From assembly GCF_003334385.1 (NCBI RefSeq), contig NZ_QOWN01000177.1: DNA of 475 nt; one strand, 5' to 3'. Source of the DNA: Escherichia coli (lineage in GTDB: Bacteria > Pseudomonadota > Gammaproteobacteria > Enterobacterales > Enterobacteriaceae). Made by a program: the position numbers and the translations under genes. Shown piece after piece: positions 1 through 475 of the stretch. The notes under the pieces are model-generated. The model ran no database searches, was not told where the DNA came from, and worked only from the letters and a program-made list of their open reading frames with translations. The number at the start of each line of letters is the position of its first letter. Positions within the stretch are counted from its first letter, which is position 1.

Positions 1-280
1 CCCTTATCCTTTGTTGCCAGCGGTCCGGCCGGGAACTCAAAGGAGACTGCCAGTGATAAACTGGAGGAAGGTGGGGATGACGTCAAGTCATCATGGCCCT
101 TACGACCAGGGCTACACACGTGCTACAATGGCGCATACAAAGAGAAGCGACCTCGCGAGAGCAAGCGGACCTCATAAAGTGCGTCGTAGTCCGGATTGGA
201 GTCTGCAACTCGACTCCATGAAGTCGGAATCGCTAGTAATCGTGGATCAGAATGCCACGGTGAATACGTTCCCGGGCCTT

Positions 281-301
281 GTACACACCGCCCGTCACAC
301 C
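281..301 (+). other. rrs: Decoding-centre (A-site) strand of helix 44 and the universal 1392-1406 primer region (E. coli 1392-1412)
   Basis: GTACACACCGCCCGTCACACC. By the n+1111 offset, C289 is C1400, C291 is C1402, G294 is G1405, T295 is U1406, C296 is C1407 and A297 is A1408. All are the wild-type bases. Confidence 0.95.
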
Positions 302-380
302 ATGGGAGTGGGTTGCAAAAGAAGTAGGTAGCTTAACCTTCGGGAGGGCGCTTACCACTTTGTGATTCATGACTGGGGTG

Positions 381-402
381 AAGTCGTAACAAGGTAACCG
401 TA
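381..402 (+). other. rrs: 3' strand of helix 44 with A1492/A1493 (381-382), the colicin E3 cleavage position (between 382 and 383) and m3U1498 (387); universal 1492R primer-binding site
   Basis: AAGTCGTAACAAGGTAACCGTA is the exact reverse complement of the universal primer 1492R (TACGGTTACCTTGTTACGACTT). Its position is consistent with the offset, since 381+1111 = 1492. Confidence 0.95.
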
Positions 403-410
403 GGGGAACC
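403..410 (+). other. rrs: Helix 45 GGAA tetraloop carrying the KsgA/RsmA dimethyladenosine positions A1518/A1519 (window 407-408)
   Basis: GGGGAACC at 403-410, with A407 and A408 mapping to E. coli A1518 and A1519. The loop is universally conserved. Methylation status cannot be read from DNA. Confidence 0.9.
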
Positions 411-423
411 TGCGGTTGGATCA

Positions 424-428
424 CCTCC
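424..428 (+). other. rrs: Anti-Shine-Dalgarno sequence (CCUCC) at the 3' tail of 16S rRNA
   Basis: CACCTCCTTA at 422-431 ends the mature rRNA. CCTCC at 424-428 is the canonical anti-SD that pairs with mRNA ribosome-binding sites. Confidence 0.95.
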
Positions 429-431
429 TTA

Positions 432-475
432 CCTTAAAGAAGCGTACTTTGCAGTGCTCACACAGATTGTCTGAT
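432..475 (+). other. First 44 nt of the 16S-23S internal transcribed spacer (partial; continues beyond window)
   Basis: Sequence immediately 3' of the mature 16S end, CCTTAAAGAAGCGTACTTTGCAGTGCTCACACAGATTGTCTGAT, matches the start of the enterobacterial rrn spacer as I remember it. It is the 3' trailer of the 17S precursor, which pairs with the 5' leader to form the RNase III processing stem (established knowledge). The spacer tRNA gene(s) lie further downstream, outside the window. Confidence 0.9.

Follow-up and report, generated by a model that had tools for sequence, protein, structure and literature searches.

The 475-nt stretch of DNA analysed here (the window) is almost certainly a standard piece of an Enterobacteriaceae (E. 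coli-type) rRNA operon, consisting of the 3' part of a 16S rRNA gene followed by the start of the spacer. This reading is carried by the identity of the sequence, by a secondary structure with covariation, by the operon context of identical copies and by leader-trailer complementarity. All of the content of the window is already known and nothing in the sequence contradicts an rRNA operon, whose character is readable from the first base.

We scanned both strands of the window against all 4,227 Rfam families and found a single match above the gathering score, to RF00177 (SSU_rRNA_bacteria) at positions 1-431 on the plus strand (cmscan; 431.3 bits against a gathering score of 50, E=7.6e-136). 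The alignment spans positions 1102-1533 of the 1533-position model with a posterior probability of ~1.00 along its whole length. It is truncated only at its 5' end, where it meets the window edge, and is unbroken, the lone indel, at window 23/24, being a 1-nt gap relative to the consensus where a hairpin loop is variable. In E. coli O157:H7, an identical copy has its rRNA annotated by RefSeq at 2391-3931 and matches the window at 3501-3975, which sets the 16S 3' end at exactly window 431. Window position p corresponds to 16S position p+1111, and the 3' part of the 16S rRNA gene at 1-431 (+) comprises nucleotides 1112-1542 of the E. coli 16S rRNA, an assignment based on the RF00177 match, on identity with K-12 rrsD and rrsG and on the annotated end. 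This segment covers the 3' major (head) domain from about h35, the 3' minor domain (h44-h45) and the 3' tail. The consensus helices of RF00177 are kept in the window, although only the 3' 28% of the molecule is present. The first-pass annotation had explained the whole window as the 3' ~430 nt of a 16S gene plus the start of the 16S-23S spacer, and had predicted a strong RF00177 match ending at 431 without a break; the match is as predicted and the remainder, 432-475, is spacer. Candidates for a second RNA family at E<=10 on both strands were GP20-b (E=1.5) and a human lncRNA model (E=5.4), which are at chance level and far below gathering, and were rejected.

We examined the structure of this RNA in an alignment of the window with the homologous segment of ten other bacteria (Klebsiella, Dickeya, Plesiomonas, Legionella, Acinetobacter, Ralstonia, Rhizobium, Peribacillus, Tsukamurella and Fusobacterium), giving 11 taxa from 5 phyla; the homologous segments were gathered by blastn from plasmid and phage collections. 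Projection of the Rfam consensus structure on this alignment placed 103 pairs fully inside the window, with a further 53 closing bases having partners upstream of it. Standard pairs fill 93.3% of the cells across the 11 taxa, and compensatory change on both sides was detected in 44 of the 103 pairs, as compared with 6-9 in slid controls in which the 3' partners were moved by 1-3 columns. None of 500 column shuffles reached the observed pairing and covariation values. Folding of the alignment by RNAalifold alone recovered most of the Rfam helices and yielded 42 compensatory pairs. Five non-canonical pairs in the window (C1402·A1500, for example) are non-canonical in 11 of the 11 taxa and are conserved features, not defects.

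Individual landmarks of the 16S rRNA can be placed on this structure. Helix 44 (16S 1399-1504) is a long hairpin in the projected consensus at window 288-393 (+), with 32 pairs of which 16 have compensatory change. The base of this helix, which we take from the known 30S structure to be the decoding centre, includes the strands C1400-A1408 at 289-297 and G1491-A1492-A1493-G1494 at 380-383 (+), both located by reading the landmark bases. Helix 45 (16S 1506-1529) is a 10-bp hairpin at 395-418 (+) in which 100% of cells are paired and three pairs have compensatory change; its GGAA tetraloop, G1516-A1519, falls at window 405-408 and contains A1518 and A1519, which we take to be the dimethylation sites of KsgA/RsmA. 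The anti-Shine-Dalgarno core CCUCC (16S 1535-1539), which functions in selection of mRNA start sites, was read from the sequence at 424-428 (+) in the single-stranded 3' tail. Reading of 16S 1400-1408, 1491-1494, 1516-1519 and 1534-1541 gave the expected bases, and the columns of the CCUCC tail and of the decoding centre are invariant in all 11 taxa. RNAalifold also proposed a long-range helix between window ~66-75 (GAGGAAGGUG) and the anti-Shine-Dalgarno tail at 422-430. This candidate is invariant, has no covariation and is absent from the Rfam consensus; we rejected it and treat the helix as an artefact of folding a truncated fragment.

Copies of the window are present throughout the species. 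Each of the 5,426 complete E. coli genomes searched by megablast contains a match of at least 99% identity; the total is 37,967 places (median 7 per genome), of which 37,957 are chromosomal and 10 are on plasmids. The near-perfect conservation relative to E. coli that had been noted in the first-pass annotation proved to be exact, as 475 of 475 bases are identical to K-12 MG1655 rrnD and, equally, to rrnG. The other K-12 operons differ from the window by one mismatch (rrnH at window 9, within the 16S; rrnB at window 452; rrnC and rrnE each at window 446) or by two (rrnA, at windows 446 and 452). In K-12, the rrnD spacer contains tRNA-Ile and tRNA-Ala, and the rrnG spacer contains tRNA-Glu. There is no difference in the window between rrsD and rrsG with their spacer starts, and the 16S 3' end is at the same place. 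Assignment to one operon was therefore rejected, and the type of spacer that follows is not told by the window because both spacer types are identical over its length. Around identical copies in E. coli O157:H7 and K-12, the gene order is 16S, then either tRNA-Ile plus tRNA-Ala or tRNA-Glu, then 23S, with a 5S gene downstream of the 23S in rrnH-type copies; the spacer tRNAs of the operon begin ~25 nt or more past the window end. Given this identity with functional K-12 operons, the RNA of the window would be transcribed and built into 30S subunits.

Assignment to one species was also rejected. Records labelled Salmonella enterica, namely two contigs of serovar Infantis and a plasmid record of 141 kb, match all 475 bases at 100% identity, spacer start included, which indicates either that this segment fails to separate Escherichia from Salmonella or that these records are mislabelled or contaminated. 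The anticipated full-identity 16S match to Escherichia/Shigella thus held for E. coli but was slightly too narrow in its taxonomic wording, since the Salmonella-labelled records match equally well.

A rival to this interpretation is that the window could derive from rRNA sequence outside a working chromosomal operon, whether through contamination, through misassembly or as a fragment of rrn carried by a plasmid or phage record. In addition to the 10 plasmid-borne places among complete E. coli genomes, 22 Escherichia plasmid records match at >=99%, one of them an 8.9-kb 'plasmid' with one annotated CDS that was read as little beyond an rrn operon, and short phage-labelled records carry the segment, as in a 1,627-bp 'Staphylococcus phage' that is 99.8% identical. 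However, the distribution of places in complete genomes weighs the prior overwhelmingly towards the chromosome, the sequence of the window is intact and matches functional K-12 operons exactly, and the odd records resemble artefacts of assembly or contamination rather than biology. We therefore regard a non-operon origin as very unlikely and retain a chromosomal rRNA operon as the source.

The unusual records merit description in their own right. The 8.9-kb record is CP088748.1 (pB16EC0942-4, 8,897 bp), a circular E. coli 'plasmid' whose single annotated CDS is a hypothetical protein; it appears to be an rrn operon that assembly closed into a circle. Among the short, unannotated GenBank records filed as phage (1.6-7.3 kb), several are plain 16S or rrn sequence, and OR850364.1 ('Staphylococcus phage SA 1298 Kay') is the record with 99.8% identity to E. 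coli-type 16S. Such records suggest that phage submissions have been contaminated from the host or the laboratory. Similarly, KM209255.1 ('Dickeya phage phiDP10.3', a 5.3-kb contig) is a bacterial rrn operon with 16S, tRNA-Glu and 23S genes, in which the 16S is over-extended by annotation to 1,706 nt (121-1826); the contig is probably host DNA. For E. coli Nissle 1917 (NZ_CP007799.1), the 16S annotation at 1389-3114 has a length of 1,726 nt and includes two copies of window bases 1 to ~85 at a spacing of 183 nt, and there are 19 matching places as opposed to 7. These anomalies are most likely an assembly artefact of that record.

The last 44 nt of the window (432-475, +) follow the annotated 16S end, are outside the Rfam match and constitute the first part of the 16S-23S internal transcribed spacer, or pre-16S 3' trailer (nt 1543-1586). 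This stretch, found without change in both rrnD (Ile/Ala spacer) and rrnG (Glu spacer) of K-12, is not featureless spacer but the trailer strand of the pre-16S leader-trailer helix (hLT). Young and Steitz reportedly described this helix, which is also the RNase III processing stem, in 1978 for Enterobacteriaceae. The window has the trailer strand only, the partner being ~1.65 kb upstream in the operon; for cofolding, we therefore combined the trailer with positions -180 to -1 of the K-12 rrnD leader, such that the leader partner is taken from K-12 and lies outside the window. In this fold, window 437-475 (+; trailer +6 to +44, nt 1548-1586) pairs with leader positions -89 to -128 in a near-continuous helix of ~39 nt. 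The duplex energy of the 44 nt of the window is -54.1 kcal/mol as compared with -20.7±3.2 kcal/mol for 500 shuffles, the best of which reached -31.5 kcal/mol.

Comparison across operons and genera indicates that this helix is maintained. An energy of ~-56 kcal/mol was obtained for the helix of leader and trailer across all seven K-12 operons. Values for other genera, a small sample, were -53.9 (Salmonella), -53.2 (Klebsiella) and -47.6 kcal/mol (Plesiomonas) despite sequence change. In these three, both strands of the proximal half have diverged, whereas the distal CACACAGATTGT(C/T)TGAT is nearly constant, as is its partner in the leader. Dickeya, whose record has only 113 nt of leader, was outside this comparison. 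Within the spacer, variation among the seven K-12 operons is confined to window positions 446 and 452, both of which are structurally tolerant places: position 446 (A/T) adjoins an internal loop of the helix, and position 452 (C/T/A) is the single bulged nucleotide of the helix (+21, unpaired).

The extent of this fold coincides with a region already mapped by truncation as essential. Using truncation and compensatory mutagenesis, Warner, Bundschuh & Fredrick (2023; PMC10250234) found that pairs between leader -113 to -89 and trailer 1548-1570 are essential for active 30S, and that truncation of the trailer to 1584 or 1589 left activity unaffected; their covariation analysis covered 1,441 leader-trailer pairs. 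The essential trailer strand, 1548-1570, corresponds to window 437-459, and the window ends at 1586; the whole of the functionally required trailer strand is thus inside the window. The same source provides the boxC sequence, UCUGUGUGGG, at leader nt -119 to -110. Its complement (CTCACACAGA) is at window 457-466 (+), as determined from the list of cofold pairs, in which window 458 forms a single G·U wobble; reversed and complemented, window 457-466 reads TCTGTGTGAG.

The position of cleavage, the enzymes and the ribosomal functions discussed in this report are inferred from the literature. The 17S precursor has extra sequences of 115 nt at the 5' end and 33 nt at the 3' end (PMC3996153; PMC9159920). 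In our fold, the partners of -115 and -117 are +31 and +33, respectively, so that cuts before -115 and after +33 would leave a 3' overhang of 2 nt, as RNase III is expected to do. From the published 17S extensions and this fold, we infer that the trailer strand is cut by RNase III after +33, between window 464 and 465 (+). Removal of the 33-nt tail has been attributed to YbeY and to RNase II, R, PH and PNPase (PMC9159920). The probable sequence of events is that the spacer RNA acts in the precursor only, by pairing with the 5' leader to form a helix that brackets the 16S and is needed for productive 30S assembly; RNase III would then cut this helix, freeing the 17S pre-rRNA, and the leftover 33-nt 3' tail would be trimmed by YbeY, by 3' exonucleases (RNase II, R, PH and PNPase) or by both.

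A protein-coding gene overlapping the rRNA gene is the remaining alternative. Mechanically, the window contains six ORFs of 28-106 aa, and the candidates are a 106-aa sense ORF at 11-331 (+) and a 63-aa antisense ORF at 233-424 (-), both of which have been deposited as 'hypothetical protein'. Exact look-up found the 106-aa sequence in several entries of E. coli UTI89 (e.g. ABE05727.1), and the 63-aa sequence on at least 1,000 contigs, occurring in E. coli and Pragia fontium. The 63-aa ORF further has a full-length match in PHROGs to phrog_21110, a family of unknown function (E=7.2e-47), and is open in all eight aligned Proteobacteria. Openness in these eight taxa is accounted for solely by its location among the most conserved stretches of the 16S, and the frame is shifted in the other three of the 11 taxa (Peribacillus by +1, Tsukamurella by +4 and Fusobacterium by +1 nt). 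The 106-aa ORF already has stops in Dickeya and Plesiomonas and beyond, and its start is lost in most other taxa.

Patterns of variation are likewise contrary to a coding function. Variable sites are spread evenly over the codon positions in both the 63-aa ORF (18, 16 and 17 of 63) and the 106-aa ORF (39/103, 44/104 and 35/104), and the variable sites of the 63-aa ORF are those that covary as RNA pairs of helix 44. For the 63-aa ORF, non-synonymous exceeded synonymous differences in the four most diverged of seven comparisons (11:5, 11:4, 16:5 and 16:5, the last two being Ralstonia and Rhizobium); the remaining three comparisons are with close relatives, each differing at two codons only. Searches of NCBIfam with the two largest ORFs and of PADLOC with all six returned nothing, and there were no promoter-like sites on either strand of the window and no terminator-like sites within it. 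Tripp et al. (2011; PMC3203614) documented proteins miscalled on rRNA as an artefact of databases, and the ORFs of the window are of the same kind, not real members of any protein family. On the basis of frame breakage, even variation across codon positions and excess non-synonymous change, we rejected the protein reading and conclude that these ORFs are spurious gene calls on rRNA. An independent gene overlapping the rRNA gene is extremely improbable, and we give almost no credence to the antisense ORF at 233-424 (-) being truly translated into a small protein from within the 16S gene, as opposed to being an artefact of gene calling. The first-pass statement that there was no room for a protein-coding gene is accordingly sound biologically, as the coding tests failed, but not mechanically, as six ORFs are present and two have been deposited.

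The phage family detected with the 63-aa ORF appears to be a spurious family built from miscalled rRNA ORFs, and one that will catch any 16S-containing sequence; its most likely origin is host rRNA sequence within records filed as phage. The 90%-identity cluster of this ORF also lists 227-aa HhH-GPD/endonuclease III-like proteins from Sulfolobus/Saccharolobus. Proteins of that kind cannot share 90% identity with a 63-aa enterobacterial sequence, and their listing looks like an artefact of clustering or look-up.

Other types of element were sought in the window. There were no tRNA or tmRNA genes and no direct or inverted repeats (0 of each). The absence of a CRISPR array, mobile element or defence locus, as asserted at first pass, is borne out within the window by the lack of repeats and by ORFs without PADLOC (six ORFs) or NCBIfam (two largest) matches.

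Here we have characterized a 475-nt segment of rRNA operon sequence, with the outcome being a clean negative: the window can be removed from lists of candidate novel systems. We also show that this rRNA segment has translations filed in protein databases, both under the label of hypothetical protein and within a PHROG family. Finally, rRNA that is left unmasked gives rise to confident-looking yet meaningless matches in protein-based scans.
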